In this document: positions 2,261 to 60,810 of the stretch, one piece after another
Layout of the letters: every line of letters starts with the position of its first letter
Position numbering within the stretch: position 1 is the stretch's first letter
Source: Isurus oxyrinchus
Taxonomy: Eukaryota
Length of the DNA: 64,000 bases
Direction: 5' to 3'
Assembly (NCBI GenBank): GCA_026770705.1
Contig: JANJGN010000008.1
Span: 87,110,001-87,174,000, forward strand
Translations under genes and position numbers: made by a program
Notes under the pieces: generated by a model
What the model saw: the letters and a program-made list of their open reading frames with translations, nothing else
Told to the model about the DNA's origin: nothing
Databases searched by the model: none

Positions 2261-5200
2261 AAAAAAAATATACCTAGAAAAACTCAGCAGGTCTGACAGC
2301 ATCTGCGGAGAGGGATACAGTTGACGTTTCGAGTCCATATGACCCTTCATCAGAACTAAGACATATAGAAATGAGATGAAATATAAGCTGGTGGAAGGGG
2401 GTGGGACAGGAGTGCTCAACAGGGGGCCAGTGATAGGTGGAGGCCAAGAAGAGACTGCCAAAGATGCCATAGACAAAAGGACAAAGGGGTGTTGATGGTG
2501 GTGATATTATCTAAAGGATGTGCTAATGGGGACATTAAGGGAAGCAAGCTAGTGGCAGATGCCCTAGTGCGGGTGGGGTGAGGGGAATGGATCGAAATTG
2601 GTTAAAAGGTGGAGATGAAACAATAGATTGAAATAAATTTAAAAATAGGATGGAAGAGAAAAAAATAGTTGTAAAAAAAATTATAAATTATTGGGAAAAG
2701 GTGGATGGGAAAGTGGGTGGGGAAAGAGGAGAGAGTTCACGAGCTGAAACTGTTGAACTCAATATTAAGTCTGGAAGACTGTAAAGTGCCTAGTCAGAAG
2801 ATGAGGTGCTGTTCCTCCAGTTTGCGTTGAGCTTCACTGGAACATTGCAGCAGGCCAAGGATGGACATGTGGGCATGAGAGCAGGGTGGTGTGTTGAAAT
2901 TGCAAGCAACAGGGAGGTCTGGGTCATGCTTGTAGACAGACTGAAGGTGTTCCGCAAAGCGGTCATCCAGTCTGCGATTGGTCTCTCCAACGTAGAGGAG
3001 ACTGCATTGGGAGCAGCAAATGCAGTAGACTAAATTGAGGGAAGTGCAAGCGAAGTGCTGCTTCACTTGAAAGTTGTTTGGACCCTTGGACGGTGAGGAG
3101 GGGGTAAGTAAAGGGGCACATGTTGCACCTACTGCAGTTGCATGGGAAGGTGCCGTGAGAGGGGGTTGAGGTGTAGGGGGTGATGGAGGAGTGGACCCGG
3201 GTATCCCAGAGGGAACGATCCCTGTGGAAAGCTGCCCGGGGTTGTAAACGGAAGATGTGTTTGGTAGGGGCAACATGCTGGAAATGACGGAGGATGATCC
3301 TTTGAGTGCAGAGGCTGGTGGGGTGATAAGTGAGGACAAGGGGGACCCTATCATGGTTCTGGGAGGGAGAGGAAGGTGTGAGGGCGGATGCGTGGGAGAT
3401 GGGCTGGACACGGATGAGGGCCCTGTCAACCACCGTGGGTGGTAAACCTCGCTTAAAGAAGAAGGAAGACATGTCAGAGGAACTGTTTTGGAAAGTGGCA
3501 TCATCAGAACAGATACGATGGAGGCGAAGGAACTGAGAGAATGGGATGGAGTCCTTACAGGAAGTGGGATGTGAGGAGCTATAGTCGAGGTAGCTGTGGG
3601 AGTCGATAGGTTTGTAATGAATATTGGTGGACAGTCTTTCACCAGAAATTGACAGAGAGGTCAAGGAAGGGAAGGGAAGTGTCAGTGATGGACCATGTGA
3701 AAATGATGATGGGGTGGAAATTGGAAGCAAAATTAGTAAATTTTTCCAGATCCAGATGAGAGCATGAAGCGGCACTGAAGCAGTCATCAATGTACCGGAG
3801 AAAGAGTTGTGGGAGGGGGCCTAAGTAGGACTGGAACAAGGAATTTTCCACATATCCCATAAAGAGACAGGCATCACTGGGGCCCATGTGGGTACCCGTA
3901 GCTGCACCTTTTATTTGGGGGAAGTGAGATAAGTTTAAGGAGAAATTGTTCAGTGAGAGTACAAGTTCAGCCAGACGGAGGAGAGTAGTGGTGGATGGGG
4001 ATTGTTTGGGCCTCTGTTCGAGGAAGAAGCGGAGAGCCCTCAGACCATCCCAGTGGGGGATGGAGGTGTAGAGGGATTGGATATCCATTCATTACAAGCC
4101 TACTGACTCCCACAGCTACCTCAACTACAGCTCCTCACACCCCGCTTCCTGTAAGGACTCCATCCCATTCTCTCAGTTCCTTTGCCTCCGTCGCATCTGT
4201 TCTTCTGTTCTTCTTCTTCATGTCTTCCTTCTTCCTTAACCGAGATTTTCCACCCATGGTGGTTGACAGGGCCCTTAACAGTGTCCGGCCCATCTCCCGC
4301 ACATCCACCCTCACACCTTCCTCTCCCTCCCAGAACCATGATAGGGTCCCCCTTGCCCTCACTTATCACCCCACCAGCCTCCACGTTCAAAGGATTATCC
4401 TCCGCCATTTCCGCCAACTCCAGCATGATGCCACTACCAAACACATCTTCCGTTCACCCCCTCCCGGCAGCTTTCCGCAGGGATCGTTCCCTCCGGGACA
4501 CCCTAGCCCACTCCTCCATCACCCCCTACACCTCAACCCCCTCCCACAGCACCTTCCCATGCAAGCGCAGAAGGTGCAACACCTGCCCCTTTACTTCCCC
4601 CTTGCTCACTGTCCAAGGGCCCAAACACACCTTTAAAGTGAAGCAGCACTTCACTTGCACTTCCCTCAATTTAATCTACTGCATTCGCTGCTCCCAATGT
4701 GGTCTCCTCTACATTGGAGAGACCAAACACAGACTGGGTGACCGCTTTGCGAAACACCTTCAGTCTGTCTGCAAGCATGACCCAGACCTCCCTGTCGCTA
4801 TCAATTTTAACACACCACCTTGCTCTCATGCCCACATGTCCGAGCTTGGCCTGCTGCAATTTTCCAGTGAAGCTCAATGCAAACTGGAGGAACAGCACCT
4901 CATCTTCTGACTAGGCACTTTACAGTCTTTCAGACTTAATATTGAGTTCAGCAATTTCAGATCATGAACTCTCTCCTCCATCCCCTCCCCTTTTCCAATC
5001 TCCCTTTTTCCAATAATTTATAATTTTTTTTACAACTTTTTTTTCTCTTCCCTCCTATTTTTAAATTAATTTCAATCTATTGTTTCAACACCACCTTTTA
5101 GTCCATTTCGATCCATTCCCCCACCCCACCTGCACCAGGTCCACCTGCCACTAGCTTGCTTCCCTTAATGTCCCCATTAGCACATCCTTTAGATAATATC

Positions 5201-5467
5201 ACCACCATCAACACCCCTTTGTCCTTTTATCCATGACAGTCTCTTCTTGGCCTCCACCTATCACTAGCCCCCTATCGAGCTCTCCTGTCCCACCCCCTTC
5301 TACCAGCTTATATTTCAACTCATTTTTATGTCTTAGTTCTATGAAGGGTCATACGGACTCGCAATGTCAACTGTATCTCTCTTCGCAGATGCTGTCAGAC
5401 CTGCTGAGTTTTTCTAGGTATTTCTGTTTTTGTTCTAGATTTCCAGCATCCGCAGTATTTTGCTTTT
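2261..5467. mobile_element. Penelope-like retroelement, inverted (palindromic) insertion: minus arm 2261-~4086 (RT C-terminus + GIY-YIG endonuclease) and plus arm ~4087-5467
   Basis: Frameshifted ORFs carry PLE RT motifs (MDIQSLYTSIPH, QIKGAATGT, LRYIDDCF) and GIY-YIG motifs (LVYCICC…LYVGETNRRL…RFAEH…EEQHLI). The two arms are reverse complements. A 14-bp TSD flanks it: ATAAAAACAAGGAG (2247-2260) / ATAAAAATAAGGAG (5468-5481). Confidence 0.9.
2319..2357 (-). ncRNA. Minimal type I hammerhead ribozyme in the Penelope 3' tail (best-preserved copy)
   Basis: Minus strand reads AGUU-CUGAUGA-A-GGGUC(AUAUG)GACUC-GAAA-C-GUC-AACU. It has the conserved CUGANGA and GAAA cores, a 5-bp stem II, stem I AGUU/AACU, a very short stem III and a GUC cleavage triplet. 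Confidence 0.8.
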
Positions 5468-5597
5468 ATAAAAATAAGGAGGACTGGTAAAGTTGCTTGC
5501 CCTCATTTTTGCAAAGCAGATCAAAAATGCACTTATAAGACTTTGGAGGGGGAGATAGAGAAAGCAGGAAACCTAACCTTAGCTTTGGGTTTGTGAC

Positions 5598-10379: not shown

Positions 10380-10720
10380 TGAATTGTGACATATGCTCTT
10401 GAGTTTACAGCAGGATTCCTTCAGAGTGGCCTAGGCAGCAGATGCGCCAGTGATATGTTTGATGACATTTAATTTGGCAACATGGGGGTTTTCGTTATAT
10501 GCATGTTGACCATGTCTTCCTGGATGATGAGCCAGTGGATAGCCCTGGTTGCCCAATAGCCACCCTTTGGTTTCTTGTTGTGGTTCAAATACAGTTGGTG
10601 CAGTGGGCCACCATAGAATGCTGCCAGGATAATGGACATTGAACTGCATGATGTGCTGAATATGGCCAAATCCCAGTTGGATATTGAGAAAGTGGAATTC
10701 CTTCCAATTGAAGTGCATCT
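10380..10720 (-). mobile_element. Degenerate PIF/Harbinger (HARBI1-like DDE) transposase fragment
   Basis: ORF 10431-10718 has NxKxFHxLNIQL, YPGS and WLLGNQGYPL motifs, the same motifs seen in the transposase at 37663-38740. Confidence 0.65.
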
Positions 10721-12396
10721 CAGAATTTAATTGCAGTCAAAAATATACCTACACAAAAAGTCCTTCTTAGGTCAAGTAGTGAACAATCACAATTTGTAGC
10801 AAAAACTCTAGATTATGGGCAGAATTTACTGCAGCCCCCTCTTCTTGCCAGAGGCAAGTTCGGAATAGAGGGGAGGGTGTAAGGTGGGCACCCCACCATC
10901 TCCCTGCCTTCCCTTGATCAAACTTTGAGCAGGAAGGTGGAGGGCAGCCTTCCGACCCGGAGCCAATTGAGGCTCTTGAGTAGTTACTTAATGCTTTGCT
11001 GCTATTCAACCAGCAGTGGGTGGGGAACTCACCATGCAGGAAGGTGCACAGTAACCTTGTCCGCCTTCCAGGTGGGAGAACTTCTCTTTCTCATGCACAG
11101 TATGTCCGATTGGAGGACCCAGCATTGCGAAGTGGGGAGCCTGGAGGACCCAACATCAGGAAATGGAACCGTTGGAGCCCACCGCACTGTGCAAATTTCC
11201 GATCCCCTTTGCAGGCAACCCCCTCCCTGCAACCTCCATCCAACCAACACAAACCTCTATCTGGTGATCCAGCAGTGATCTTCAAGGTAAACCTGAATGT
11301 AGGAACAGCAGTGGCGACCACTCCCAATGGCGCTTCTGGTACTAGAGAGCTGCCAGCCTCTGATTGACTGACAGCTCTTGGGGATATGATTTTCACCTTA
11401 TTTGGCACTTGATTGCCTGGGAGGCCCGACGCTGTCTATGTATGTGCCTGATTGCCTCATAGTAGCCCCAGGCCTCCTGGAGCGAATCAACATGGGAGTC
11501 CTGTCTGTTCTGCAACTGGTGGGCAGGATCCCTGTTACCAACACTAAACTTCACCCAAATCTCCTCTCAACCTTGCTTTTGGTAAAGAGAATATCATGAA
11601 ATATGGGCACGTGGAGCAGTTGAAATTCTGTTTCACTTGAGTTAAATTTTAAAAAGTAGTTTGGAACTTTTTTCTCTAAAATATCACAAAATTCCTTGAA
11701 AATCACCTGCATGTTTATAATGACTAACTGCTTCAAGACTTCAAATACCTGTGTCTTCACTTTCACCTCTGCTACTGTCCACAGTGGCATCAAAACAATA
11801 TCACCTCAGTTTCCATCTCCAATATCCAGAGACCCCTTTAGAGGTATTGGTATTGGCCACATGCCAGAACTTATTACCATGTCTTTCATTGCAAAATGGT
11901 CAGGTGGATAAATCCTATCACGATCCATACCCAAGAATTTCTAGCACTGAGTCTAGCAGTTAACCAAATGACCTACCTGATCATCATTATAAGAATAGGC
12001 AGTTTGTTTTATTCTTGTGCAGTCTTGAAAACATGTTTGTTGTGTAAACAAAAACAGAAAATGCTGGAAAAACTCAGCAGGCCAAACAGCATCTGTGGAG
12101 AGAAAAAAAGAGTTAATGTTTCGAGTCTGTATGACTTCTTGTGTAGACATTAGTGTGTGGTATAAGGTTTTGAGGAGGAAGAAAAATATGTGAGAAAATT
12201 ACTCATATCTGCACAGATAGATCAGTGCTAAGGAAAAAGTGGCTTGATGGTTTTTATAATTAGGTTCAACCAAATGAAGATTGAAAACATTGCCATGAAT
12301 TGTGCAACAGTAATTATCATTAGTTAAGGAAGGTGCGTTATTAGATGAAGATTCTCTTATCTTTTTCTAATTAAATTATTTGTTAACATTTTCTAG

Positions 12397-12566
12397 TGCA
12401 AGCAACTTGTATGACCTATGACATGGTTACCCTGCGTACAGACCCCTCTGTCGTGGAATCAATGATACAATTAAATGAAGCATACCTGAATTGCAGAGAA
12501 TCAGTGGCAAAGGACTACAAAGAAATGCTAACCAAACCCAAAGAAAATGAATCAAAAACAGTTTGA
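12397..12566 (+). CDS. SYCE3: SYCE3 terminal coding exon: VQATCMTYDMVTLRTDPSVVESMIQLNEAYLNCRESVAKDYKEMLTKPKENESKTV*
   Basis: Acceptor ttttctag|TG; phase-1 join gives V. Ungapped match to recalled human VQATWMAYDMVVMRTNPTLAESMRRLEDAFVNCKEEMEKNWQELL. TGA at 12564-12566; total 90 aa; candidate polyA signal ATTAAA at 12769-12774. Confidence 0.93.
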
Positions 12567-16114: not shown

Positions 16115-16640
16115 CTAGCTTGGCTGGTTGGCTAAATGTTTACCTTTGAGTCAGAAGGTTGTGAATTGAAGGATTTCAAGAAAGTGATTCAGTTCTTGAT
16201 CTAGGTTTATTCAGAGTACTGATGAATTGCTGCATTGTCAGATCTACTGTCTTTCAAAAGAGATGGTAAATTAAGATCTTGTCTGCTTAGACTTAAATTA
16301 TTCTTTCAAAGAGGAGTATGGCATTCTCCTGTTGGTTTCTTGAACATTAATGCCACCACCTGCACAGATTAATGTGTCTTTAATTTACTATTGGTAATGC
16401 TTTGTGCACAGATTGACTGCCACAATCTCCGACATAACTGTGACAATACTTCAAAGGACAATACTTCAATACTTCCCCCCTCTTCACCGTCCAAGGGCCC
16501 AAATACTCCTTTCAAGTGAAGCAGCACTTCGCTTGCACTTCCCTCAACCTTAGTTTAGTCTACTGCATTCGCTGCTCTGAAGTAATTTGGGGTGTCCCTC
16601 CTGTGAACATAAAAGGCATGATATAATTGCAAATTCTTTA
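16115..16640 (+). mobile_element. Degenerate DeuSINE (SacSINE1-like) SINE, interrupted by a short Penelope GIY-YIG fragment (~16470-16577)
   Basis: tRNA-like head (…tgagtcagaaggttgtg…), Deu-domain-like core (gcattgtcagatctactgtctttc…cagattaatg…tgtgcacagattgactgcc) and tail atataattgcaaattcttt. Recognised from recalled consensus; boundaries approximate. Confidence 0.55.
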
Positions 16641-17685: not shown

Positions 17686-18750
17686 GCATGATGCCACCAC
17701 CAAACACCGCCCCCCCCCCCCCCCCCCACCCCCCATCGGCATTCCGTAGGGATCGTTCCCTCTGGGACACCCTGGTCCACTCTTCCATCACTCTGTACAC
17801 CTCAACTCCCTCCCACGGCACCTTCCCATGCAACCACAGAAGGTGCAACACTTGCCCCTTTACTTACCCCTCCTCACCATCCAAGGGCCCAAACACTCCA
17901 TTCAAGTGAAGCAGCACTTCACTTGCACTTCCCTCAATTTAGTCTACTGCATTCGCTGCTCCCAATGCAGTCTCCTCTACATTGGAGAAACCAAATGCAG
18001 ACTGGGTGACCTCTTTGCGGAACACCTTGGGTCTGTCCACAAGCATGACCCAGACCTCCTTGTCGCTTGCAATTTCAACACACCACCCAGCTCTCATTCC
18101 CACATGTCTGTCCTTGGCCTGCTGCAATGTTCCAGTGAAGCTCTATGCAAACTGGAGGAACAGCACCTCATCTCCCGACTAGGCACTCTACAGCCTTCTG
18201 GACTTAATATTGAATTCAACAACTTCAGATCATGAACTCTCTCCTCCATCCCCACCCCCTTTCTGATCCCCCTTTTTCCAATAATTTATAATTTTTAATA
18301 TATTTTTTCTTTTCCCACCTACTTCCATTATTTTTAAATGTATTTCCATCCATTGTTTTATTTCTAGCTTTTAGCCCATTTTGATCCCTTCTCCCCACCC
18401 CCCCTCCACCTCACCCCCACCCCCACTAGGGCCATCTGTCACTTGCTTGCCCTGCTTGCTACCCTTAATGTCCCCCTGAACATATTCCTTAGCTAATATC
18501 ACTACCGTCAACACCCCTTTGTCCTTATGTCTATGACATCTTTGGCAATCTCATCTTTGCCTCCACCTATCACTGGCCCTCTATCCAGCTCTACCCCCCC
18601 CCCCACCTCAACCAGCTTATATTCCACCTCATCTCTATATTTCTTAGTTCTGATGAAGAGTCATACGGACTCAAAACGTTAACAATATTCCTCTCCACAG
18701 ATGCTGTCAGACCTGCTGAGTTTTTCCAGCTATTTTTATTTTTGTTTTAT
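17686..18750 (+). mobile_element. 5'-truncated Penelope-like element (GIY-YIG + 3' tail with hammerhead at 18646-18683)
   Basis: ORF 17828-18235 is GIY-YIG (LVYCIRC…LYIGETKCRLG…GLNIEF). The 3' tail matches the arms of the 2261-5467 element. Confidence 0.88.
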
Positions 18751-20874: not shown

Positions 20875-20983
20875 GTACACAAGGAACCAGTGAGTAATTT
20901 TTGCATGGCTGAGCAGCAGGAAATACTTGAGGAAATGATTAACTATTTGGGCACAATGTTAGAAGATATGGACCAACTATATG
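20875..20983 (+). CDS. SYCE3-like paralogue, coding exon A: (VHKEPVSNFC)MAEQQEILEEMINYLGTMLEDMDQLY + 1 nt
   Basis: Acceptor tttgttgaattag| and donor TATG|gtaaca; 109 nt, open throughout, phase-1 end like SYCE3. ATG at 20905. The hydrophobic heptad register matches SYCE3 (L..M...L..ML.DM..L). Confidence 0.72.
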
Positions 20984-22017: not shown

Positions 22018-23867
22018 AAAGCAATATATTGTGGATGCTGGAAGTCTGAAATAAAAACAGAAAATGCTGGAAAAACTTAGCAGGTCTGGCAGCATCTGTG
22101 GAGAGAGAAACAATTAATGTTTTGAGTCTATATGACTTCTTCAGAGCTAAAGAGACATAGAAATGTGATGGATTTTATACTGTTTAAGAGGGGTTGGAGC
22201 AGGTGAAGCAAGATAGAAGGTTAGCAATAGGTGTGAGCTAAGGAGAGATTGACAAAGATATCATGGACACAAGACAAAGGGAGTGTTAATGGTAGTGGTA
22301 AGGACTAAATAAGGTGCTGATACTGGCAGAATGTGTTAATAGCAGAGCAAGAGTGAGCGCTCTGTGAAAGCGCAACATAGAGACAAGTGACAGATGACAT
22401 TGGGGAGTGGCACATTGGGGGAAAAAGGATTATAAATAAGTAAGCAAGATTAAAAATAAAATTTAAAAATAAAAAAATCGATTAAAAAAGTAGAGATAGG
22501 GGAGAGTGTTCATGGTTTGAAGTTGTTGAACTCAATGTTAAGCCTAGAAGGCTGCAAAGTGCCTAATCAGAAGATGAGGTGCTGTTCCTCCAGTTTGCGT
22601 TGAATTCACTGGAACATTGCAGCAGAACAAGGATGGACATGTGGACATGAGAGCAGGCTGGTGTGTTAAAATGGCAAGCGACAGGAAGGTCTGGGTCATG
22701 CTTGCAAACTGAGCGAAGGTGTTCCACAAAGTGTTCACCTAGTCTGCATTTAGTCTCCCCAATGTAGAGGAGACCACATTGGGAGCAGCGAATACAGTAG
22801 ACCAAATTAAAGGAGGTGCAAGTGAAGCACTGCTTCGCCTGAAAGGAGTGTTTGGGGCCTTGGATGATGAGGAGGGAGGAGGTAAAGGGGCAGGTGTTGC
22901 ACCTTATGCGATTGCATGGGAAGGGAATGAGGAGCTGGGGGGGTGACAGAGGAGTGGACCAGGCTGTTAAGGAGGGAAGGGTCCTTATGGAATGCTGACT
23001 GGGGGGAGGTGCTGGTGAGGGGAAGATGTGTTTGGTGCTAGCTTTATGCTGAAGTTTGTAGGAATGACGGAGGATGATCCATTGAACGCGGAGGCTGGTG
23101 GGGTGAAAACTGAGGACAAGGGGGACTCTCTATCATGATTCTGGAAGGGAGGCAAAGGGCTGTGGGCACAGGTGTGGGAAATGGGTCAGACGTGGTTGAG
23201 GGCCCTGTTAACCACAGTGATTGGGAACCCTCGGTTAAGGTAAAAGGAAGACATGTCAGAAGCGCCGTTTAGGAAGGTGACATCATCTAAACAGATGCGA
23301 CAGAGGCGGAGGAACTGAGAGAATGGGATGGAGTCTTTACAGGAAGCAGGATGTGAGGATTTTCATTACAAGCCCACAGACTTCCACAGCCACCTTGGGT
23401 ACGGTTCCTCACACCCTGCTCAACCGTGCCCAACCCATCTTCCGCACCTCTGCCCTCACCTCTTCCCTCCCTGGTCCATATTTTAAAAAATCTTTTTTCC
23501 CCAACAACCCATCCCCACTCCCCCCAGCCCTATCTTTCACTTGTTTCTGTGTTGTGTTTTCACAGAGCACTCACCCTTGTTCTGCTATTAACACATTCTG
23601 CCACTATCAACACCTTCTTTAGTCCTTACCACTACCATTAACACTCCCTTTTTCTTGTTTCTATGACATCTTTATCAATCTCTCCTTAGCTCCCTATCCC
23701 TGACCTTCTATCTTCCTTCATTGGCTCCACCCACCTTCAACAGTATAAAATCCATTACATCTCTACCCTTTATCTCTGAAAAAGAGTCAAACGGACTCGA
23801 AACGTTAACTCTGTTTCTCCCTCCACACATGCTGCCAGACCTGCTGAATTTTTCCTGAATTTTCTGT
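22018..23867. mobile_element. Penelope-like element, inverted insertion (minus arm 22018-~23359, internally deleted plus arm ~23360-23867)
   Basis: GIY-YIG ORF remnant at 22563-22805(-). Both ends carry the PLE tail in opposite orientation. 15-bp TSD TCTGATCTGATCCTG (22003-22017) / TCTGATCTGATCTTG (23868-23882). Confidence 0.85.
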
Positions 23868-24061
23868 TCTGATCTGATCTTGTTGGACAATCACTTGATC
23901 AGGCGATCCTGCAGCTCCCCTTGGTGGTCATTTCTTAAACAAAAATTGTGACCCTGCCTCCCAACCCCCCAGCTCCTTTTTTAAATCCACCGCTGTATCC
24001 TTTCTCAAAGCTCTGTAATCAGGAATTTTGAGCTGCTATTACTGCCCTTCCTGAGCCATAC

Positions 24062-26280
24062 GAACATACAAAATAGGAGCAGAACTAAGCCATTCGGCCC
24101 CTCGAACCTGCTCTGACATTCTATTAGGTCATGGCTGATCTGTTTGTTTTTGAATTCCACATTCCCATCTGCCCCTGATAACCTTTGATTCCCTTGCCTA
24201 ACAAGAATCTATCTACCTCCGCCTTTGAAATATTCAATGACCCCCCCTCCACCGCTTTCTGAGGCAGAGTTCCAAAGTCGCAAAATCATCTGAGAGAAAA
24301 AAATTCTCCTAATCTCAGTACTTAAAGGGTGACCCCTAATTTTAAAACTGTGCCACCTAGTTCTAGACTTACCCAGAAGAGGAAACATCCTTTCCACATC
24401 CACCTTCTCGAGACCATTCAGGATCTAATATACTTCAATCAAGTTACCCATCACTCTTCTAAACAAGCCCAGTCTGTCCAACCTTTACTCATAAGACAAG
24501 CCATTCCTTCCAAGTATCAATCTAGTGAACCTCTCTGAACCGCTTCCAACATATTTATATCCTTCCTTAAAGAAGGAGACCAAAACTGCACACAGTATTG
24601 AGATGTAGTCTCACCAATGCCCTGTATAACTAAAGCACAACATCCTTACTTTAATAAAAGCAAAATACTGTGGATGCTGGAAATCTGAAAGACAGAAAAT
24701 GCTGGAGAAACTCAGCAGGTCTAGTAGCATCTGTGGCGAGAGAAACAGGGTTAAAGTTTCGAGTCCATATAACCCTTTTTCAAATCCTTACTTTTATGTT
24801 CAATTCCTCTCAAAATAAAGGATAGCATTTCATTACCCTTATTAATTACTTGCTGTACCTGCATACTAACTTTTTGTGACTCATGCACACCTAGAACACC
24901 TACATCACTTTACACCTTGGAATTCTGCAGTCATTCTCCATTTAAGTAATACTCTGCTTTTTTAATTCTTCTTGCCAAAGTGAACAACTTCACATTATCC
25001 TTCATCTCAAAATTTTTGCCCACTCACTTAACCTATCTATATCTGTCTGCATCCTCCTTATGCCCTCTTCACAACATACTTTCCTACCTATCCTTGTGTT
25101 ATCTGCAAATTTAGCCACCATGCCTTCACTCCCCTCATCTAAGTAATTGATGTAAATTGTAAAAAGTTGAGGCCCCAGCATCGAGCACTGCTGGACTCCA
25201 CTTGTCACATTTTGCCAATCAGAAAAAGACACATTTATGCATTCTCTCTGTTTTCTACCAGTCAATCAATCTTCTATCCAAGCTAATATGTTACCCCCTG
25301 CATCATGAGCTTTTATTTTCCGCAATAACCTTTGATGTGGCACCTTAGCAAATGTCCTCTGGAACTCCTAGTACAGTGCGTCATAAGGCTCCCCTTTATC
25401 CACTGCACATCTTACTCCTTCGAAGAAATCCAAAAAATTGTTTAAACATGATTTCCCTTTCACAAAACCATATTGACTCTTCCCGATTACCTTAGGTTTT
25501 CCTAAGTGCCCAGCTATAACCTCCTTAATGATCAATTCTAACACCTTCCCCACAACAGACATCAAGATAACTGGCCTGTGCTTTCCTGTTTTCTGCTGCC
25601 CTCCTTTGTTGAATAAAGGGGTAATATTTGCTAGTTTGTAGTCTGATGGAACCTTTCCAGAATCTAGCGAATTTTGGAAAATTAACACCAACTACTATCT
25701 CATTAGCCACCCCCATTAAGACCCTAGGATTAAGTCTATCAGGTTCCTGAGAGTTGTCAGCCCGCAGCTCCATCATTTTGCTTGGTATTGCTTCCCTAGT
25801 GATTGTAATTTCACCAAGTTCCTCTCTCCCTTCCACCTCCTGATTTACAGCTATTACTGGAATATTTTTTGTATGTTCTGTATCATATTTCAGTACTTTC
25901 AAGTGTATATCTGTGCCCTCAGCTCATCTACCTTATTCACTAGCATTCTTGCATTGAAGCATGTAGCATCAATCACTGCACAACATTTTTGTTTTATACT
26001 CTTTGTTTTCACAATCTTCCAAACTTGCTAATTAATTTTCTGCCTTTGATTTCTAGCTTTGTTTCTTCGTCCCTCTGAATCTACGCTCAGGTTCCTTCCT
26101 CCCTGCCAAAATAGTTATAAGTTTCCTCTACAACACAAGCAACCTCCATGATATTGGCCCCAATCCTGCTAAGGTGTACCCCATTCAGCTTGTAAAGGTT
26201 CCACCTCTCCCAATGCCCCCAGAATCTGAAACCCTCTCTCCTGCACCATCTCTCCTGCCATACATTCAGCTGCACTATCC
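24062..26280 (-). mobile_element. Degenerate CR1-clade LINE (RT and 3' UTR, ORF1 esterase-like remnant)
   Basis: ORF remnants IFQNSLDSGKVPSD…ANITPLF, QYGFVKGKSCLNN, VTSGV.Q.SMLGPQLFTIYIN, KFADNT and WCRREGFRFWGHW. Boundaries approximate. Confidence 0.85.
24656..24783 (-). mobile_element. ~128-bp Penelope 3'-tail insertion inside the CR1 LINE
   Basis: PLE tail sequence whose 5' end falls in a degenerate hammerhead core. 14-bp TSD ATCCTTACTTTAAT (24642-24655) / ATCCTTACTTTTAT (24784-24797). Confidence 0.75.
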
Positions 26281-27569: not shown

Positions 27570-27691
27570 TGCAGACACAGCTTCTCCTGTGCGACATGAC
27601 TATATGCTTCAACTCTCCAGCAAAGATGGAGGCAGTCAAACATGGTGAAGAGAGGTACAAGCATCACAGAGAAATATCAGACCACCAATAG
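27570..27691 (+). CDS. SYCE3-like paralogue, terminal exon: VQTQLLLCDMTICFNSPAKMEAVKHGEERYKHHREISDHQ*
   Basis: Acceptor tttttgcattttag|TGCAG mirrors SYCE3 ctag|TGCAA. Ungapped alignment keeps VQ, DM, the loop Pro and the E/EE/Y positions. TAG at 27689-27691; AATAAA at 27851-27856. Confidence 0.72.
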
Positions 27692-27967: not shown

Positions 27968-29185
27968 TATCAATGATTTGGATGAGGGAACTAAATGTGA
28001 TATTTCCAAAGATAAAGATAAAATACTGTGGATGCTGGAAATCTGAAACAAAAACAAAAAATGCCGGAAAAACACATCAGGTCTGACAGCATCTGTGGTG
28101 AGAAAGACAGAATTAATGTTTCGAGTCCGTATGACTCTTCTTCAGAGCTCTGAAGAGGAGTCAGCTCTGAGGAAGAGTCATACGGACTCAAAACGTTAAC
28201 TCTGTCTTTCCCTCCACAGATGCTATCAAACCTGCTGAGTTTTTCCAGCACTTTTTGTGTGTAATATTTCCAAGTTTGCTGACCCAACACGAAACTTGGT
28301 GGGAATGTGAGTGGTGAGGAGAGTGTTAAGAGGCTTTGAAACGATTTAGACAATTTGAATGAATGGGAAAATACATAGCAGATGCAGTATTACATGGATA
28401 AGTGTGAAGTTATCCACTTTGATAAGAAAAACAGAATGGCAGGGTATTATTTAAATGGTGATAGATTGGGAAATGTTAATGTACAAAAGGACCTGGGTGT
28501 CCTTGTACACCAGTCACTGAAAGCAAGCATCCAGGTGCAGCAAGCAGTTAAGAAGGCAAATGGTATGTTGGCCTTCATTGCCAGAGGACTTGAGTACAGG
28601 AGCAAGGATGTCTTACTGCAGCTGTACGTGGCCTTGGTGAGACCACACCTGAAGTATTGTATGCAGTGTTGGTCTCCTTACCTAAGAAAGGATATACTTG
28701 CTATAGAGGGAGTGCATCAAAGGTTCACCAGACTGATTTCTGGGATGGAAGGATTCTTGTATGAGGAGAGATTGGGTCGACTAGGCCTATATTCGCTGGA
28801 GTTTAGAAGAATGAGAGGGGATCTCTCTGACAGGGCTGGACAGACTGGATGCAGGGATGATATTTCTTCTGGTTGGGGGGTCTAGAACAAGTGTTGCAGT
28901 CTCAGGATATGGAGTAGGCCATTCAGGGCAGAGATGAGGAGAAACTTCTTCACTCAGAGGGTGGTGAACCTGTGCAATTCTCTACCATAGAGGACTATGG
29001 AGGCCAAGTCATTGAATATATTTAAGAAGGAACTAGATAGATTTCTAGACTCTAAAGGCATCAAGGGGTATGGGGAGAGAGCGGGAGTATGGCATTGAGA
29101 TAGGGGATCAGCCATGATCATACTGAATGGTGGAGCAGGCTCAAAGGGCTGAATGACCTACTGCTCCTATTTCCTATGTTTCTAT
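27968..29185 (+). mobile_element. 5'-truncated CR1-clade LINE (RT C-terminus + 3' UTR)
   Basis: ORF 28382-28885 (KCEVIHF…KDLGVLV…KANGMLAFI…LVRPHLKYC…LEFRRMRGDL) and a typical tail ending cctatgtttcta. Confidence 0.88.
28010..28259. mobile_element. 250-bp palindromic mini-Penelope made of two divergent hammerhead-containing tails, inserted in the CR1
   Basis: Minus tail ~28018-28149 and plus tail ~28164-28259. 14-bp TSD TGTGATATTTCCAA (27996-28009) / TGTAATATTTCCAA (28260-28273). The CR1 RT sequence (ISKFAD) resumes across it. Confidence 0.82.
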
Positions 29186-29909
29186 ATTCAAATTGAAATG
29201 TTAATTCTGTTTCTGTCTCCACAGACGCTGCCAGACCTGCTGAGTATTTCCAGCATTTTCTGTTTTTATTTCAGATTTCCAGCATCTACAGTATTTGCTT
29301 TTAAAACAAAATCAATTTGTTGAAAACAATGCATGAACAAGTCAGGCAGTATCATTGGAGAGCGCAGATGGGTTGAGATTTCAGCTCTGAGCTCTTTGTC
29401 AAGATTGGAGGGTATTGCAGATGAACAACACTCAGAAAGGAACATAACAACAATAAGGTACAGAAAGAACACACAAGGGAATAATTAGAATGACCCAATA
29501 AAATGCTTAATTGGAAAATGAGCTGTTTAAATAGCAGAAATGATATTAAAATTAGACAATAGTGAGGCATAATAAGAATAACCAAGAAACTCAAGACAGT
29601 TACAAAACACAGGGAACATGTGAATTGCTGAAGCATGCAAGGGATGAGATCAGTGACGAATTTACAGTTAATGGGGCCCTGTCCTCAGGTTCACTTTCGG
29701 AGTCCTCCCACCCCACCAGGACTCCCGCCCCACTTCTGGAAACAAGCCAAAACTATGGGGCATTGGTTATTTCACTGGCTTTTTCACAGTCACATAACTA
29801 CTTCTGCACACTATCACATAAACTTAGTTATCGCCACTTAATCGAAAAAACTTAGTGCCTCTAATGAGATGATACAACTTAAAGCATGTATGCAATTGAG
29901 TGCTCCTTT

Positions 29910-36956: not shown

Positions 36957-37183
36957 GGGCGGAATTTTATGGCCCTCTTCGCAGTGTGTTCAAAACTCCA
37001 TTTAATTGCCTCTGTTTAATTCTGTTTAACTCTGTTTAACTCTGTTTGCCTCTGTTTAACTCTGTTTGCCTATGTTTAAATCTGTTTAACTCTGTTTGCC
37101 TCTGTTTAACTCTATTTAAGTCTGTTTGCCTCTGTTTAAGTCTATTTGCCTCTGTAAAATCCCGTTGGTGTAAAATTCTGCCC
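36957..37183. mobile_element. Harbinger-type MITE filled with a 10-bp-period minisatellite (CTCTGTTTAA / CTCTGTTTGC)
   Basis: TIRs GGGCGGAATTTT…AAAATTCTGCCC; tandem array at ~37005-37155. Confidence 0.72.
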
Positions 37184-37662
37184 AATGGGTTGTATTTTTT
37201 TGTCCCGCGGGCGCGCGTCCGAACCGAACGGGAGTAAAATATTGCGTGATGATGTCAGGTGAGTGCTCCGATGTCATCATGCACTCACACGATATTTCGC
37301 TTGGTGGGCACAAATGGGCACCCGCCATTAATTAACAGGCCACTTAAGGCCATTAACAATCCAATTGTCTGTGATTTTTCGTTGCCCATGCGATTTTCTG
37401 CTCGTTGCATGGGCAAAACGGGCAGGTAGCCAGCTGACACTTTCTCAAATCTCATCCAAGTGCGAGTGTGAGTAGTGAGCAGTTTTCGAGCTAGTTTGCA
37501 GCTGGTTGCTTATTGGTACTGGGCAGCTTCATTTCTGTTCGGAGCTTCAATCTTATCATTTCTAGGCCTCATTTCAGGACTCATTGCTGCCTGTCAGGCC
37601 CCCGGAGGATTCAGACTGTGTGGACCCCTCCAGGTATCAGACAGCTTTCTGTTCCCCTAGTA

Positions 37663-51923: not shown

Positions 51924-51986
51924 TGCTGCTCGGCGTCTATTCTTTGTTCACCATGCTGTAGAATACTATGAGATATCTTTCTATAG
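51924..51986 (+). CDS. Candidate internal exon (AARRLFFVHHAVEYYEISFY), 63 nt, phase 2-2
   Basis: Acceptor aatcttag| and donor TAG|GTAAGG. It is open only in the phase-2 frame, which matches the exon at 43044-43213. Confidence 0.3.
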
Positions 51987-53589: not shown

Positions 53590-54357
53590 TGAGACCGCTT
53601 TGCAGAACATCTTTGGTCTGTCCGCAAGCATTACCCAGACCTCCCTGTCGCTTGCCATTTCAACAGTCCACCCTGCTCTCATGACCACGTATCCGTCCTT
53701 GGTTTGCTGCATTGTTCCAGTGAAGCTCAACGAAAATGGGAGAAACAGCACCTCATCTTCCGACTAGGCACTTCACAGCCTTCCAGACTGAATATTGAGT
53801 TCAACAATTTTAGATCATGAACTCTCTCCTCCATCCCCACCCCCTTTCCAATTTTCCCCCTCCTTTTTGTTTTTTCCAATAATTTATATAGATTTTTCTT
53901 TTCCCACCTATTTCCATTATTTTTAAATGTATTTAATATTAAATATATCAAATGTATCCATTGTTTTATCTCTACCTTTTGGCCTTTTTTGATTCCTTCA
54001 CCCCACCCCACCCCCACCATGACTATCTGTACCTTGCTCGTCCTGCTTTCTACCCTTAATTAGCACATTCCTTTAGATAATATCACCACCTTCAACACTT
54101 CTTTGTCCTTTTGTCTGTGACATCTTTTGGTTATCTCCACCTATCACTGGCCCTCTATCCAGCTCTTCTTGTCCCCTCCTCCCCTTAAACAAGCCTATAT
54201 TTCACCCCTTTTCTATTTTTCCTTAGTTCTGTTGAAGAGTCATGTGGACTCGAAATGTTAACTGTGCTCCTCTCCACAGATGCTGCCAGACCTGCTGAGT
54301 TTTCCAGGTATTTTTGTTTTTGTTTTGGATTTCCAGCATCCGTAGTTTTTTGCTTTT
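53590..54357 (+). mobile_element. 5'-truncated Penelope-like element (end of GIY-YIG + tail with degenerate hammerhead ~54225-54263)
   Basis: Same sequence family as 4740-5467. Confidence 0.85.
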
Positions 54358-55904
54358 ACCTTCATGTGAATAATGTTGTTCTGCCTCTGCTGCAATGCAA
54401 TCTATGGACAGTAGATGTCCTTCCACTATAACCGTAAGATTTTTCATTGCACTTTGAGCAGCTGCACGGGAATAAGGATTCTTATTTCATACTATGCAAT
54501 ATAAAACTGACGGACATATTAATTTTGTTCATACCTTTAGTGAGCTTGTTGCTGTTACCCATGTATGTCTTCATACCATTGTGGCTCTAACCTGCTTTTG
54601 AATGGGTGCTGGCATGCAAAAAGCATTGATGAAAAAGTTTTAGTGAAGCCTTTTCCTTGCGAAAGGGGAGTTGTATATCAAAATATGAGGTCCATGTACA
54701 TTAACCACTAGAAGTTAATACATAGGTACAAATCATCAATAAGTGGTAGAATTTTACTTTTTATTTCAAGGGAGAAGGAATTCAAAGTGGGGAGAGAAAA
54801 ACCCTGGTCAGACCTCACCTGAGGTACTATGTTCAGATTTCGGCAGTGCACCAGAGGAAAGTTTATTGAGCAGGGTGGGGATAATTTGAGCTTAAAGGGT
54901 TAAATTTTGAAGACATGTTGCATAAAAGTTTGTGTTCCCTTGAGTTTAGAAGGTTGAGAAGTGATTTAATTTCTTCACTCAGGAGGGCAGTGAATCTTTG
55001 AAATGGATTTGTGGGTGCTCAGTTGATGAATATCTTCAAAACTGAGAGCAATAGATATATGGGCTCCAAGGAATCATGGTATATAGGGCTAGGGCAGGAA
55101 ATTGGAGTTTATGTAAAAGTTCAGCCAATGTCTTATTGAATGGCAGAAAAGGTGTGAGGGCCTATCCCTGCTCCTAGTTCTTATGTTATATGTTCATGCA
55201 TTTCAGTTGAAGTGTTTAAAATGATAATGGTTTCTGTCTCTCTCTGCAACATCCCCCTGCCTCCTGGCCTGATTTCTCTGGTTGGGGAATCCAGAAAAAG
55301 GGTGCAAACCTCAAAATTAGTGCCAGGCCATTTGGTAGTGAAATTAAAAGGCATTTTTTTCACACAAAGTGGAAATTTGAAAATCCATTCCCACCCCAAG
55401 ACCGGGACTTTTCCGAGACAGTATTGGTCCTCCCGCCAGGGACACAAGTGGAGGATGAGCTACTTTGGTGAGCCGCAGGATCTGGAACTTCAATTTACGG
55501 CAGCAACCAATTAGGTGGCTCCTGCCAAGTCTGCCTTCCTATTAAGGACAGCAACCTTAAGCCCCCAAGAGCTGCTGGTCCAATCAAAGGGCCAACAGTT
55601 CAGCAGCACCACTGGGGAGCATGGCAATTGCTGGGGCTGCACCTTAAGGAAGCTGTAGTAATCTGATGTGTAATATGCCTTTAAGACAAATGTTGTAATG
55701 TAAGATCACATGATCTTGATATCCAATCACAGAGTAGTGCAGGCTACCTCTAGAGAAGTCTTAAGTTAGAATCTGAAGTGTGAAGATAGAGATTTGAGTT
55801 GTAAGCACACAAGTGTAGCTGCTGAGTTCCTTTTGTATATAAACAGAATGTGTTTCTTCTAAGAACAGTCTACAGATCTTCTCTGTATCGGTACCAACAC
55901 GGTC

Positions 55905-56440
55905 ACGCTGCCATACCTGGAATACTGTGAATAATTTTGGTCCCATTATTTAAGGAAAGATATACTGACATTGGAGGCAGTCCAGAAAAGGTTCACTAGG
56001 TTGATCCCGGGTATGGAGGAATTTTCTTATGAGAAGAAGTTGAGAAGGTTGGGCCTGTACTCATTTGAGTTTAGAAGAATGAGAGGCGACCTTATTGAAA
56101 CATAAAAGATTCTTAGCGGGCTTCACAGGGTAGATGCTGAGATGTTGTTTCCCCTTGTGGGAGAGTCTAGGACCAGAGGGCATAATCTCAGAGTAAGGGG
56201 GCACCTATTTTAGATAAATATGAGGAGGAATTTCTTCTCTGAAGATGAATCTGTGGAATTTTTTACTGCAGAGGGCTGTAGATTCAAGGCTGAGATAGAC
56301 AGATTTTCAATCAGTAAGGGAATCAAAGGTAATGGGAAAAAGGCAAGAAAGTGGAGTTGAGGATTATCAGATAGCCATGATCTCATTGAATGGCGGAGCA
56401 GACTTAGACCGAATGGCCTTCTTCTCTCCTATGTCTTATG
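55905..56440 (+). mobile_element. CR1 LINE 3' fragment
   Basis: LEAVQKRFTRLIPGM…EFRRMRGDLIET-type coding and a CR1 3' UTR ending cctatgtcttatg. Confidence 0.8.
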
Positions 56441-57189
56441 GAAACAAGTGTGCAACCGGGATCCTTTGGCCCCAACAAACCAAGGGCACTGGATCCAACA
56501 GAAGTGGGCGTATAGATGGATGATGCCCTCACAACTAAGTAGAAGGGGTAAAGCAGGCCCCAACAAGGAGTCGGGTGGTGGTTGCTGTGGGTAGATGGCA
56601 CCAATGCTGCGGGAGCCCCTTAATGGGTCAAACAGCACCCAGAAAGGGGACTATCCACCCCTACTTTGAGTCCTACTGGGAGGCTGCTAGGCTTTACGTT
56701 GCAGCCTTGCTCTGCAGCAGCGGGTTGCCCTGTCCTGGTAAAATGGCAGCGAGGGAAGGAGGAGGCCCTCAACAATTTGCCATAATTAAGTGGCTTAATT
56801 GATCTCCAGTCAGGCAGGCCATCTGTGACCTTTCCCCCCAGCTGGAAAATTTGCAAGGTGGAGGGAAGGCATTGGGCACTCCACCCAATACCTTCCCTCC
56901 ACCATTTTGCCAGTTTTCCTGTCTCAAACCCTATCCTCAAAGGGCCTGGAAAATCCTGACCCAAAATAGGCTGTGGATTCTAAACAAAGCTTTCAAGACT
57001 GAGATTTTTAAAGGCGTATAGGGAAATGGGTCAAAGACAAGGAAATGGAACTGAGTTACGCATTAGCTATAATTTAATTGAACAGCAAACAGGCTCATGT
57101 GGCTGAATGCCCTACTTCTGTTACCAAATAGTTTAGTGTTTAAATTAATTTTGACTGATAAATGTTTCTTTATATCTACTCCTAAACAG

Positions 57190-57220
57190 TGATCTTTTAG
57201 ATGAGAAGCCAGATGCATGA
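57190..57220 (+). CDS. Candidate terminal exon (SDLLDEKPDA*)
   Basis: Branch-like ctgat, pyrimidine tract and aaacag| acceptor. The phase-2 reading ends at TGA 57218-57220 and is followed by several hundred bp of AT-rich UTR-like sequence. Confidence 0.22.
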
Positions 57221-58107
57221 CAGGTCAACAATGTAAGCAGCAACGTAAACAATCCCCGAGGAATGTGCTGCTTCAGAATAAACAGCTATTGGAAAATAAC
57301 AGCCATTTCTTTTAAAGAAGAAATGTAAGTACAATGGAAATTGGGAAAACCTAAGCCTTAGAAAGATATGATGTATTGTCAATCAAAATTACTATTATCC
57401 AGAAGTTCTTTTAGAAAATTAATTGTTACAGAAAAGAATTGTAACAAATCAGAAATGATATGGTGCATTGCTCTAGTGCTGAGAAATGAGTTGAGCCTGT
57501 TTGAAAATATGTTACAGCTGCACAAGCCTGAATTCTGCCTGTCTTGCTTGTTCCTTATTGAAGAGGACAGTATCTGCATCAGAGGGTTTGGGAAACACTC
57601 TCTGCATTTTTAAGATGATATGTTGAAGAGCATCAACATGCCATTTGAATGTGACACCTATGCATTGAACATTATAGTCCATCCCCCTCTTCAAGCAAAA
57701 TATTTGCCAAGCTTGTAAACGTGAGTGTTTAATAGGCAAATATTGTATGAGCCTGTAGTTATTATATCACATTTAGTTCATGATGAGGTGCAAACCATGG
57801 TGTTGTAACAAAGGTATATTGTGTATATTCAATAATTCTATTATCTTCTTTCTGAGTAGGTTATGTTATAGTCAATGCACTTTTTGCTTATCAATGTAAC
57901 AATGTTCAGTAAGGCTCTATAAGTCAGCAACTTTAGATGACACCTGTGAATCGCTGATGCCTTTGATGCTGTTGGTCTTGCCTCTATATTTTATCTTCTT
58001 CTGATTACTACTTTCTCTTCTGTAACTATTTTTGAGTCAAGATCTTGGTTTTGCTTAACTGATCATTCAGTGAAACCTTAAAGGTATTTCGCAAATTCAT
58101 CCTGACT

Positions 58108-58468
58108 ATTTTCATTATTTCATGGGAGGTGGGCATCGCTGGCAAGGCCAGTATTTGTTGCCTATTCCTAATTGTCTTTGAACTGAGTGGCTTTCCACAC
58201 TATTTCAGAGGATAATTAAGAGTCAACCACATTGTTGTGGGTCTGGAGTCACATGTAAGTCAGAAGAGGTAAGGTGAACTAGGTGGGTTTTTACAACATT
58301 TACATTGGTTGAATGGTCATCAATACTGAGACTAGCTTTTTGCAATTCCAGATTATTAATTGGATTTAAATTTCACCAGCTGCCATGGTGGGATTTCAGC
58401 CCTTGACTCTAAAGTATTAGCCTGGGCCTCTGGATTACTAGTCCAGTGACATTACTACTGCACCACTG
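58108..58468 (-). mobile_element. Second copy of the tRNA-headed SINE (same family as 44945-45333)
   Basis: Reverse complement has head gtggtgcagtagtaatgtcactggactagtaatccagaggccc and the same LINE-type tail. Confidence 0.7.
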
Positions 58469-60679
58469 TCTCACTGTGTTGTGCTTCAGTGGAGCTTTGG
58501 ACTAAATTGTACGTGGAAGGCTCTCTGGAGGTTCATTGCTACAGGACAGCACCGAGAGAATTTTTGCCATTAAAGTCGTGACAAAACCAGAAAGTCTCAG
58601 CCTTTCCTAATCCTTCAACTGCAGTATTGTTGCAACCTGAAAATGTTAAACCTTTCTTGCCTCAATATTTATTTAATGCACCAGAAAGACTGTTTTTGTG
58701 TTCCTTTCACCCGAGGAACAGCTTTCTGTGAAGCAGCACATATGATCATCCATTTGGGTGAGCTACCTTGTGTCTCTAGTACTGCCTTAAAGGAAGGGAG
58801 CAAAGTAATAAGTGTACACCTCCCCCTTTTTAGACTAGATGTCAGACTGGATTTTTGTGCCCTGCTGTAATGGAATGGAGGCGGATAGCATCGTCTACTG
58901 GTATTCCAGCTCCCCAGCTTCATCCCACCTTTGGGCCACTTCCCCACCGGAAGGATGGCGGTGGGGGTGGGGGCGGGTGGTGGTGGGGGCGTGTGAGTCA
59001 TGTTGCACAGCAGGACAACCCAGCTGCAAGCAGTGAGTAACCAACTGACTCACATAAAGGCATCATAAAGCTGGTTGTCAGAGGCCAACTGGGATTTTCC
59101 AGTCAGCCTCCAGGTCCCTGCAGGTGGTAGGGGTCAATGCAGCTGCATGGATATGACCTCCCAGTCGCAGACTAGAGATCTTGCCTACCTGCCTGGGCTC
59201 AGCAGCAGCCTCAGGCTGCCCTGTGGAGAGGCCACCACCCCCGCACCTCTTACCACAGCCATCCCCCCACACCACAATGGTTTTAAGGAATATCTTAAAG
59301 AGGCAAAAAGGGTTAAGGAGGGAATTCCAGAGCTTTAGGGCCTAGGCAGCTGAAGACATGGACACCAATGGTGGAGCAATTTATATCAGGGATGCACAAG
59401 GGACCAAAGAAGTGCAAATATCTTGGAGTGTTGCAGAGCTGGAGGAGGTACCAGAGAAAAGGAGGGACAAGACTATGGAGGGACGTGAAAACAAGGATGC
59501 AAGTTTTATTTTAGATTATGTACTGTAATTCTGTTAAAATTGGAGAACTTTTCTGATCCTTTATTTACCATTGGTTAGGGTTGTTTACTGAAATCTCATC
59601 CAGAAAACCATTTTCAAACCATTCCCTTTAATATATAGCTAACAATGCCCAGAGGAGAGGAAAATGTTGCACAAGCAATTGACTGTGGCTTGGGCAGAGG
59701 CAGCAGATAAAATGTTACTTTTGTACCTCATTTATCTCCCCTCCTCTAAAAGGCTTTGGCTCATTTTTTTTCGAGTTTGGCTCTTCAATTGTAAACCTAA
59801 AAACGAGCGTCAGCTAAAACCCTGGTCAAAATATACACAAAACGCATGTTAAAAATTGGGTTTGCTGTCAATACTTTCTCTGGTTTAGTGGGCAACTTAC
59901 TCTCATAGATGATCGGAGAGTCTGAATTTACATGAGTTGGCTTGCACAGCCCTATATCTACTTATGCAATTGAGCAACTCAGGAGTCTACCAATATCCCT
60001 TTGTGTTCTGAACAATTTATTTCTAAGTCCTGCTGCATTGTGTCCTCTCGCGGCCTTTTTTTGGGCTTCTCTATTTCACTTGTTTTATTTCATAAATGTG
60101 GCTGCTAATGTTTCTCTGTGTTTTTATCCCTTGTTGTCAAAGCTTTTCATTTTGCACTCATCATGACAGATGCAAGAATGCCAAATTTCGAAAGGTGCAA
60201 AATTTATACAGAATGAGAAAAGGGTGGTGATTGGTTGGCAAGTTGACTCTGTATAATAATCTTAAATTGGTATTTAGTACAATTCTTAGCATACTCGGGA
60301 TTGTTCAATGAGTGCAGAATCACATCTAACATTAGACACTGTGTTCTGAGTTTTGTAAGCAGGGACTGGTTAAGTACGGTCAGTACTTTGCCTAATATGA
60401 ACAGCCAAAGGGACGTGCTGTTTAATACAATCCGCCAGTCATTGGGACTTATATCCTACATACCTGGCATTGCACTGGCACTGAAACTTATATACCGCAT
60501 TACTCATTTGCACAATAGGCAGAACGTCTTTTCGGTTTGACGTTAGTGGAAAATACCACTCATATTGCTAGCAGCGTGAAATGGCTAGCTTCACCTGTTG
60601 TTCAAATTTTTGAGATACCTTACCATTGCAAGGTAATTTGAGATGGACATGAAAATGCCCACTTGAAAAGTGGGGGCAT

Positions 60680-60810
60680 TGAAGAAGAGTCATACGGACT
60701 CGAAATGTTAACTCTGTCTTTCTCTCCACAGTTGCTGTTAGACCTGGTGAGTTTTTCCATCATTTTCTGTTTTTGTTTCACATTTCCAGCATCTGCAGTA
60801 TTTTGCTTTT
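60680..60810 (+). mobile_element. Short Penelope tail starting at the hammerhead core
   Basis: tgaagaagagtcatacggactcgaaatgttaact…catctgcagtattttgctttt. Confidence 0.72.

Follow-up and report, generated by a model that had tools for sequence, protein, structure and literature searches.

In 2014, Cervera and De la Pena described minimal hammerhead ribozymes (min-HHR) in metazoan Penelope-like elements (PLEs), within the pseudo-LTRs (PMC4209133). As set out there, they have a type I fold without a stem III loop, palindromic at 15.2-16.2, with a short (4-bp) stem I, an extra base between 9 and 10.1, and a G10.1-C11.1 pair. They sit in both terminal repeats of their elements and occur in thousands of mostly solitary copies and in opposite-strand pairs. 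The motifs analysed here share all of these properties, whereas their counts are far higher and their dominant lineage carries U6. Cleavage by the published relatives is described as weak and as requiring a dimer or protein (PMC4209133, PMC11167929). Endonuclease-bearing (EN+) PLEs of the Neptune and Nematis groups, as described by Craig et al. (2021, PMC8557442), encode a reverse transcriptase (RT) followed by a C-terminal GIY-YIG domain, with a Cys-rich linker, and leave partial tandems, an inverted 5'-truncated copy and a 30-40 bp tail that is often one-ended. All of these recur here; what the present analysis adds is a quantified, strict rule of one long and one short tail.

Three further systems bear on the comparison. 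In PAc, a Poseidon element of Anolis, reverse transcription is reported to start at two sites downstream of the ribozyme, which accounts for the two 3' ends, to extend both strands of the target and to use mainly uncut RNA as template (Frangieh et al., 2024, PMC11167929), as appears to be the case here. The PAc ribozyme overlaps the start codon, whereas ours lies about 140 nt upstream of it, and protein-assisted cleavage has been demonstrated for PAc, whereas for our motif cleavage is a prediction. Animal non-LTR retrozymes, reported in one chondrichthyan genome, likewise carry type I hammerheads from Penelope terminal repeats (bioRxiv 10.64898/2026.07.22.740005). The hammerhead of phage Bcep176 has a natural change, A6C, at core position 6 (PMC3088659, PMC7151607).

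The window is a stretch of 64,000 nucleotides of the Isurus oxyrinchus genome. The original prediction placed eleven hammerhead motifs in it, and all of their coordinates and strands were correct (Table 1); a twelfth remnant, absent from that list, has been added. The eleven motifs make up eight insertions, with 2319/5335, 22111/23773 and 28111/28164 forming head-to-head pairs flanked by short target duplications. The copy at 2319-2357(-) is the only intact one of the eleven, with a full core (CUGANGA...GAAA...UH, in type I order), both stems and GUC; its predicted cut lies between 2323 and 2322, where it had been placed before. Decay at CpG, as previously proposed, is seen in 8 of the 10 non-intact listed copies (CG>TG or CG>CA at C11.1-G12 or C15.2-G16.2), 23773 and 24749 being the exceptions. 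The CUGUUGA core at 54225 was also considered as decay and rejected, as it is an inherited subfamily letter. Classification as non-LTR retrozymes was rejected as well: retrozymes are tandem arrays (bioRxiv 10.64898/2026.07.22.740005), whereas the copies in the window are dispersed, truncated or mirror-image, with no tandem array among them.

Table 1. Hammerhead motifs, the insertions that carry them and SYCE3-related exons in the window
Feature	Position	Strand	Details
SYCE3 first coding exon, predicted	117..219	+	heuristic
Penelope head-to-head insertion, left arm	2261..4087	-	remnants of RT (YIDD motif) and GIY-YIG; 3' UTR, ribozyme, short tail
Intact minimal type I hammerhead	2319..2357	-	stem I AGUU/AACU, core CUGAUGA, extra A9a, 5-bp stem II, GAAA, ACGU stem III, GUC
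Same insertion, right arm	4087..5468	+	88% identity to left arm; long tail; GIY-YIG remnant 4155-4907
Broken hammerhead	5335..5372	+	core minus one base, A13>C, C15.2>U
Short copy, start within core	12046..12140	-	G16.2>A
SYCE3 second coding exon	12397..12566	+	PF15191, 46 bits; only match in genome
5'-truncated element	17686..18749	+	GIY-YIG remnant 17750-18232; hammerhead 18646-18683, G12>A
SYCE3-like divergent paralogue, predicted first exon	20905..20983	+	no Pfam hit
Head-to-head insertion	22018..23868	both	12-bp target duplication; one long, one short tail; hammerheads 22111-22148(-) and 23773-23810(+), both broken
Short ribozyme-plus-tail copy	24655..24783	-	11-bp target duplication; G8>A, G16.2>U
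SYCE3-like paralogue, predicted second exon	27570..27691	+	alignment score reached by 1/2000 shuffles
Miniature head-to-head insertion	28012..28258	both	10-bp target duplication; stem I begins each arm; hammerheads 28111-28149(-) G16.2>A, 28164-28201(+) G12>A
Twelfth remnant	29195..29309	+	tail and GAAA half, without CUGA half
5'-truncated element, U6 lineage	53593..54358	+	hammerhead 54225-54263(+), core CUGUUGA, C15.2>U
Short ribozyme-plus-tail copy, start in core	60680..60810	+	C15.2>U

Pairing in stems I and II, tallied over 146 copies, is found together with the extra 9a base and G10.1-C11.1; the CUGAAGA subfamily (9 of 37 A6 copies) has a C-A mismatch in stem I. The palindromic stem III that had been predicted is present, but the actual palindrome is the 4-nt ACGU, and the intact copy reads AACGUC rather than AACGUU. 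CG at 15.2/16.2 of this loopless stem is the majority in all six subfamilies, and the ACGU self-duplex is predicted at -3.1 kcal/mol. In the isolated 2319 motif, stems I and II are predicted to pair with probabilities of 0.71 and 0.99, and the value for stem I falls to 0.02 or less once 70 nt of upstream sequence is included. An upstream 'anti-ribozyme' fold was rejected, as shuffled upstream sequence folds as well in 5/5 copies. Nine matches at E<=10 were returned by an Rfam scan of the window, with no hammerhead family among them, a gap that is likely due to the loopless stem III. The motif is likely a self-cutting RNA.

The variation in stem II (GGGUC or GAGUC against GACUC) had been read as pairing preserved through change. 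Pairing is indeed kept, but the change is a one-sided G-U/A-U exchange and not covariation, and the window's own family holds no compensatory stem change. The covariation that the original prediction called for comes from a sister family (1,464 matches versus 0 in the control), which has true compensatory changes on both sides of stem II. There, 10.1-11.1 is A-U in 89 of the 100 matches listed, by eye and with those letters left free, and 10.2-11.2 is G-C, as against A-U or G-U in the main family; the changes thus affect two adjacent pairs and count as two events, not many. Among the six subfamily majorities, variable columns number 82/112 upstream (inflated by indels in C runs), 2/11 in the core (one of them from a single tandem array), 2/18 in the stems and 0/2 in the palindrome. 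The tail is also well conserved (16/62 columns vary), and the ribozyme is therefore not singled out by conservation. The divergence of 109 young copies is 5.6% at CpG sites, as against 0.5% at the remaining core sites.

The assignment to Penelope holds: full-length copies elsewhere in the genome have RT (PF00078, 30 bits), GIY-YIG and a motif at each end. GIY-YIG scores lie overall just under or below the Pfam cut-off, with 21.8 bits against 22.6 in the full-length copies. A single ORF with RT and C-terminal GIY-YIG is found at two loci (L074 and L078), and remnants of it in the window. The linker of L078 reads CX4CX2C, which fits the CX2-5CxxC form of Neptune, a form also described in Nematis (PMC8557442). 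The terminal-repeat element is thus an endonuclease-bearing PLE, likely of the Neptune clade, a placement for which the linker motif is the sole basis. Also present are pseudo-LTRs that arise from partial tandems, truncated copies in inverted orientation and an optional 30-40 bp tail. Three tandem units lie 3,325 bp apart with identical motifs; in the source element the motif stands about 140 nt upstream of the ORF start and again 3.3 kb on. The motifs had been assigned to the 3' tail, which is actually the start of the next unit, its 5' untranslated leader. An AUG within the core was rejected as the ORF start, since a stop follows it and the ORF begins about 140 nt past the cut. A joint of a 5' UTR intron after the tail was absent from the RNA contigs of four runs, a weak negative; contigs of this kind cannot show where an RNA ends.

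The ends of the copies are informative about the RNA from which they were made. The 3' ends are bimodal, with 100 tails at +60-74 and 107 at +95-109 among 346 off locus edges. Of the 64 mirror pairs listed, 37 could be classified, and 34 of these combine a long tail with a short one (p=1e-7); a further set of mirror pairs does so in 42 of 46 cases, with 0 long+long and 0 short+short. A fold-back origin of the inversion junctions was rejected because the tails of the two arms are unequal. Copies extend through the predicted cut site: of 88 unselected copies, 33 have their 5' end at -50..-26 and 3 no more than 5 nt from the cut, and neither these nor 69 leader-anchored copies show a pile-up at the cut. 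Since the 5' ends cluster just ahead of the ribozyme and not at the cut, the copied RNA was mostly uncut. Loci that do end at the cut site cannot prove cleavage, because 20 of 30 are inversion junctions, 5 of these joined via stem I letters. The G preceding short copies (8/33), possibly cap-derived, is close to background G content.

The reading that we favour, with a probability of roughly 0.8, is that a PLE, likely Neptune, carries these minimal type I hammerheads in its terminal repeat, and that the copies in the window are decaying passenger insertions, likely made from RNA not yet cut. By analogy with the described systems, a double hammerhead would form when the ACGU palindromes of two motifs pair, and its cut would follow GUC or GUU, probably at a low rate or aided by an element protein. 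Reverse transcription likely has two start sites, some 65 and 103 nt beyond the cut, and both ends of a staggered target break may prime; the result would be mirror-image insertions in which one tail is long and the other short. Many copies end just before stem I, the likely 5' end of the RNA. After insertion the motif decays, chiefly at CpG, and nothing points to a function for SYCE3.

The family was predicted to be very abundant, and genome-wide counts bear this out: a strict pattern has 2,531 matches in the 4.98 Gb genome (0 in the reversed control), and a loose canonical-core pattern 10,834 (98 in the control). Cores with U6 number 104,128, about a tenfold excess over the canonical ones. 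Tail divergence is 0.035 for U6C7, 0.113 for U6U7 and 0.158 for A6 in genome samples largely from one end of contig C1, which makes U6C7 the youngest, and a tree built without the ribozyme letters is a ladder from A6 to U6C7. When young copies are selected by tail alone, 108 of 109 have U6. About 82 of the 100 listed canonical copies, counted by eye, have GUU instead of GUC. It is odd that the youngest and commonest copies have altered a normally fixed core letter. Searches for A6U or the U6 letters found no Penelope paper among the titles listed; Lunse et al. 2017, which reportedly deals with dimer cleavage of Penelope hammerhead variants, may list U6. Literature joining hammerhead ribozyme, shark and Penelope yielded nothing relevant, although supplements of the retrozyme preprint (10.64898/2026.07.22.740005) may name chondrichthyan families. 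One supplementary file of PMC4209133 lists neither a shark nor Callorhinchus or Leucoraja, and lacks the cores CUGUUGA and CUGUCGA. Bcep176 is a single C6 example with low Mg2+ activity and a preference for Mn2+, whereas here the letter is U6 and about 100,000 copies inherit it (PMC3088659, PMC7151607). As A6C, a change at position 6 damages other hammerheads (PMC3088659, PMC7151607), which, given U6 in the youngest lineage, counts against the favoured reading. So do the lack of a hammerhead match in Rfam, the stem I mismatch of the CUGAAGA subfamily, the prevalence of GUU, the conserved tail and the weak predicted pairing of stem I in its upstream context.

These numbers give substance to an alternative that we consider quite possible though short of probable, namely that the motif is a hammerhead by descent only, cutting being dispensable, and is kept as an RNA shape or as a promoter or protein-binding sequence at the start of the RNA. 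The excess and youth of U6 cores are consistent with it, as are reports that ribozyme mutants of the anole element insert normally in vitro (PMC11167929) and that Naiad elements thrive without hammerheads (PMC8557442). Young-family junctions number 241 at the cut, 121 at -3 and 196 at +3, which is no sharp enrichment, although the cut position tops the three counts. However, the ladder from A6 to U6C7 retains throughout the ACGU palindrome, a triplet that can be cleaved and all ten of the remaining invariant core letters, the young lineage shifted from GUU to GUC, and the A6C variant is reported to cleave still, slowly or in Mn2+ (PMC7151607). For the U6 lineage itself we tentatively suggest, with some doubt, that A6 was replaced and more than 100,000 copies were then made from uncut RNA with stems and palindrome kept, and that the motif, instead of cutting freely, may act mainly as a folded 5'-end signal or as a switch gated by protein or metal.

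The short copies of ribozyme plus tail are unlikely to form a non-autonomous element in their own right, akin to a SINE or a retrozyme, that spreads via its own RNA. Many are of about 100-140 bp with a common start and target duplications, and outside the window one locus (L153) is a decayed tandem array of ribozyme-bearing units of about 530 bp; but the short copies have the same subfamily letters as the long ones, often stand opposite a longer arm in a mirror pair, and are dispersed, not tandem, in the window.

The window was thought to hold two SYCE3 genes, of which the second is only a divergent predicted paralogue without the SYCE3 Pfam hit; a SYCE3 splice joint was not seen in four runs of contigs of unspecified tissue. 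The sense copies at 5335 and 23773 are broken, with the intact copy lying antisense, as had been observed, but the hint of selection drawn from this is unsupported: only 9 of 61 unselected old-type copies have intact cores, so that chance alone would leave both sense copies broken with a probability of about 73%. That the ribozymes cut efficiently in vivo and that selection removes or inactivates intact sense copies in introns, SYCE3 included, as harmful to host pre-mRNAs is very improbable, since the pattern of the two sense copies in predicted introns and the reported overall scarcity of tandem retrozymes in Xenopus introns (bioRxiv 10.64898/2026.07.22.740005) are set against intact copies being rare wherever they lie, three antisense intronic copies (12111, 22111, 24749) being broken as well, a lone copy having no dimer partner in cis and its mirror twin on the opposite strand, and the second gene being only predicted. 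Nothing connects the motifs to SYCE3.

The main finding extends a known ribozyme class to another vertebrate genome and carries no message about SYCE3; the side result on U6 outweighs it in importance. Searches for the canonical core would overlook about nine-tenths of the core-bearing copies in this genome. The role of the hammerhead in these elements has been called unclear (PMC8557442), and the genome holds natural cores of graded age (A6, U6U7, U6C7) that are comparable in one cleavage assay. If the reading of the U6 lineage is true, that lineage would amount to a test, run by nature, of the purpose that the Penelope hammerhead serves.

The hammerhead motifs of the window are real and belong to an already known class. 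All eleven listed positions hold the motif, of which a single copy is intact, and a transition at either core CpG site is found in eight of the ten non-intact copies, as expected from the CpG-type decay originally proposed. Across the 4.98 Gb genome the strict pattern has 2,531 matches, against none for the reversed pattern used as control, and a 22-nt pattern derived from the tail has 173,886. An Rfam scan of the window returned no hammerhead family. Cleavage of the motif is inferred.

Features located in the window
Feature	Position	Remarks
Intact hammerhead motif	2319-2357 (-)	predicted cut between 2323 and 2322
Additional hammerhead remnant	near 29195	beyond the eleven listed
U6-lineage copy	54225-54263	
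Mirror-image insertions	2261-5468, 22018-23868, 28012-28258	head-to-head
Internal endonuclease-region piece of the element	16470-16577	lone; without ribozyme or tail
SYCE3, predicted first exon	117-219	completes 90-residue frame
SYCE3, one exon	12396-12530	PF15191 match, sole one in genome
Second, divergent SYCE3-like gene (plausible)	20905-20983 + 27570-27691	two exons, 66 codons, downstream of SYCE3
Tandem 10-bp repeat	36980-37186	~15 copies
Another, older dispersed repeat family, pieces	24063-25000, 28396-29185, 54968-56440, 62996-63503	mutual identity 65-70%
Near-perfect hairpin	56850-56913	~64 nt; weak microRNA-family matches, far under gathering scores

The carrier is a Penelope-like element. 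Upstream of long copies in the window lie GIY-YIG and RT remnants, and frames of more than 800 codons are kept at two loci of the genome (DNA search with the RT-remnant region; 40 of 16,910 candidates scored). In these long-frame loci the RT match scores 30 bits and the GIY-YIG match 21.8 bits, the latter slightly below cut-off; they also contain a CX4CX2C linker, a type that marks Neptune/Nematis (PMC8557442). Full-length copies have one motif per end with ~3.3 kb between them, and three tandem units are spaced at 3,325 bp. The motif sits in the Penelope terminal repeat; the "3' tail" assigned to it is really the beginning of the next unit, because the ORF starts ~140 nt past the cut site. 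Minimal hammerheads of this kind are known in fish, coelacanth and frog elements, with low activity and as dimers only, and the anatomy found here agrees with those elements (PMC4209133). In one tandem run (L180-L181, G000:C1:12155000-12174800) full 3,325-bp units carry four identical U6C7 motifs, a natural setting for dimer formation. Another locus (L153, G000:C1:20525000-20534900) is a retrozyme-like tandem array of roughly 530-bp units, each terminal repeat plus leader, in which the motifs seen are decayed.

The 3' ends of 346 tails lying off locus edges form two groups, at +60-74 (100) and +95-109 (107) from the cut. Head-to-head pairs combine one long and one short arm in 34 of 37 classifiable cases, out of 64 listed, and in 42 of 46 further pairs; over both sets, from fetched loci, the long tail ends at about +103 and the short at about +65. 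Target duplications of roughly 9-14 bp are usual. Two start sites, with extension off both target strands, would give such long and short mirror arms; the scheme was shown for an anole element (PMC11167929), and both observations fit it. The 5' ends of unselected copies fall at -50 to -26 in 33/88 and near the cut in 3/88. Copies span the cut site, which means that at this point the template was intact or had been religated. No clear cleavage footprint was found among young-family junctions, with 241 at the cut against 121 and 196 three bases either side, and those at the cut are mostly inversion junctions. At five mirror junctions (L326, L336, L338, L340, L346) one arm stops at stem I while its partner begins precisely at the predicted cut, so that both arms share the four letters of stem I; by eye, about 20 of the 100 cut-site matches listed have such a beginning. 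The element is also covered in contigs from four runs that are likely RNA, although contigs cannot reveal ends or strand.

In the isolated intact motif, predicted pairing is 0.71 for stem I and 0.99 for stem II, and ACGU self-pairing is possible. The G/A variation of stem II, taken originally as preserved pairing, is a one-sided change only. True covariation is supplied by a sister family that is older and shares this tail (1,464 pattern matches, none in the control): pair 10.1-11.1, both letters left free, is A-U in 89 of 100 listed rows, by eye, and the pair next to it is G-C. Sister copies (L262-L321) have stem II AGGUC/GACCU with a 3-nt loop, and in some the endonuclease remnants lying upstream share 43-62% identity with the young family. 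Among six subfamily majorities, columns vary at 82/112 upstream, 2/11 in the core, 2/18 in the stems and 16/62 in the tail. A C-A mismatch in stem I of one subfamily counts against the structure, as does the predicted dissolution of stem I within natural flanking context; this loss is no greater than with shuffled upstream sequence.

The hint that sense copies in SYCE3 introns are broken while the intact one is antisense dissolves into a pattern expected by chance, since only 9/61 old-type copies are intact, antisense intronic copies are broken as well, and every sense copy belongs to a pair in which the partner arm is antisense. The second gene has no SYCE3 Pfam hit; its score against the first was reached by 1/2000 shuffles, and it could represent either a tandem paralogue or a pseudogene.

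The youngest and commonest lineage (e.g., L100, L101, L103, L104) has a CUGUCGA or CUGUUGA core, about ten times as frequent as the canonical one: U6 cores have 104,128 genomic matches (control 52) and A6 cores 10,834 (control 98). Chosen by tail alone, 108 of 109 young copies carry U6. Tail divergence falls from 0.158 in A6 (n=29) through 0.113 in U6U7 (n=50) to 0.035 in U6C7 (n=99), and a tree of 84 rows, built with the ribozyme left out, 18/60 U6C7 copies kept and a midpoint root, gives the same ladder, A6 to U6U7 to U6C7. The A-to-U direction is read from the general consensus, which has A6, and from these ages rather than from an outgroup. In other hammerheads A6C strongly reduces activity in Mg2+ (PMC3088659, PMC7151607). 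The U6 series is the part that deserves an experiment.
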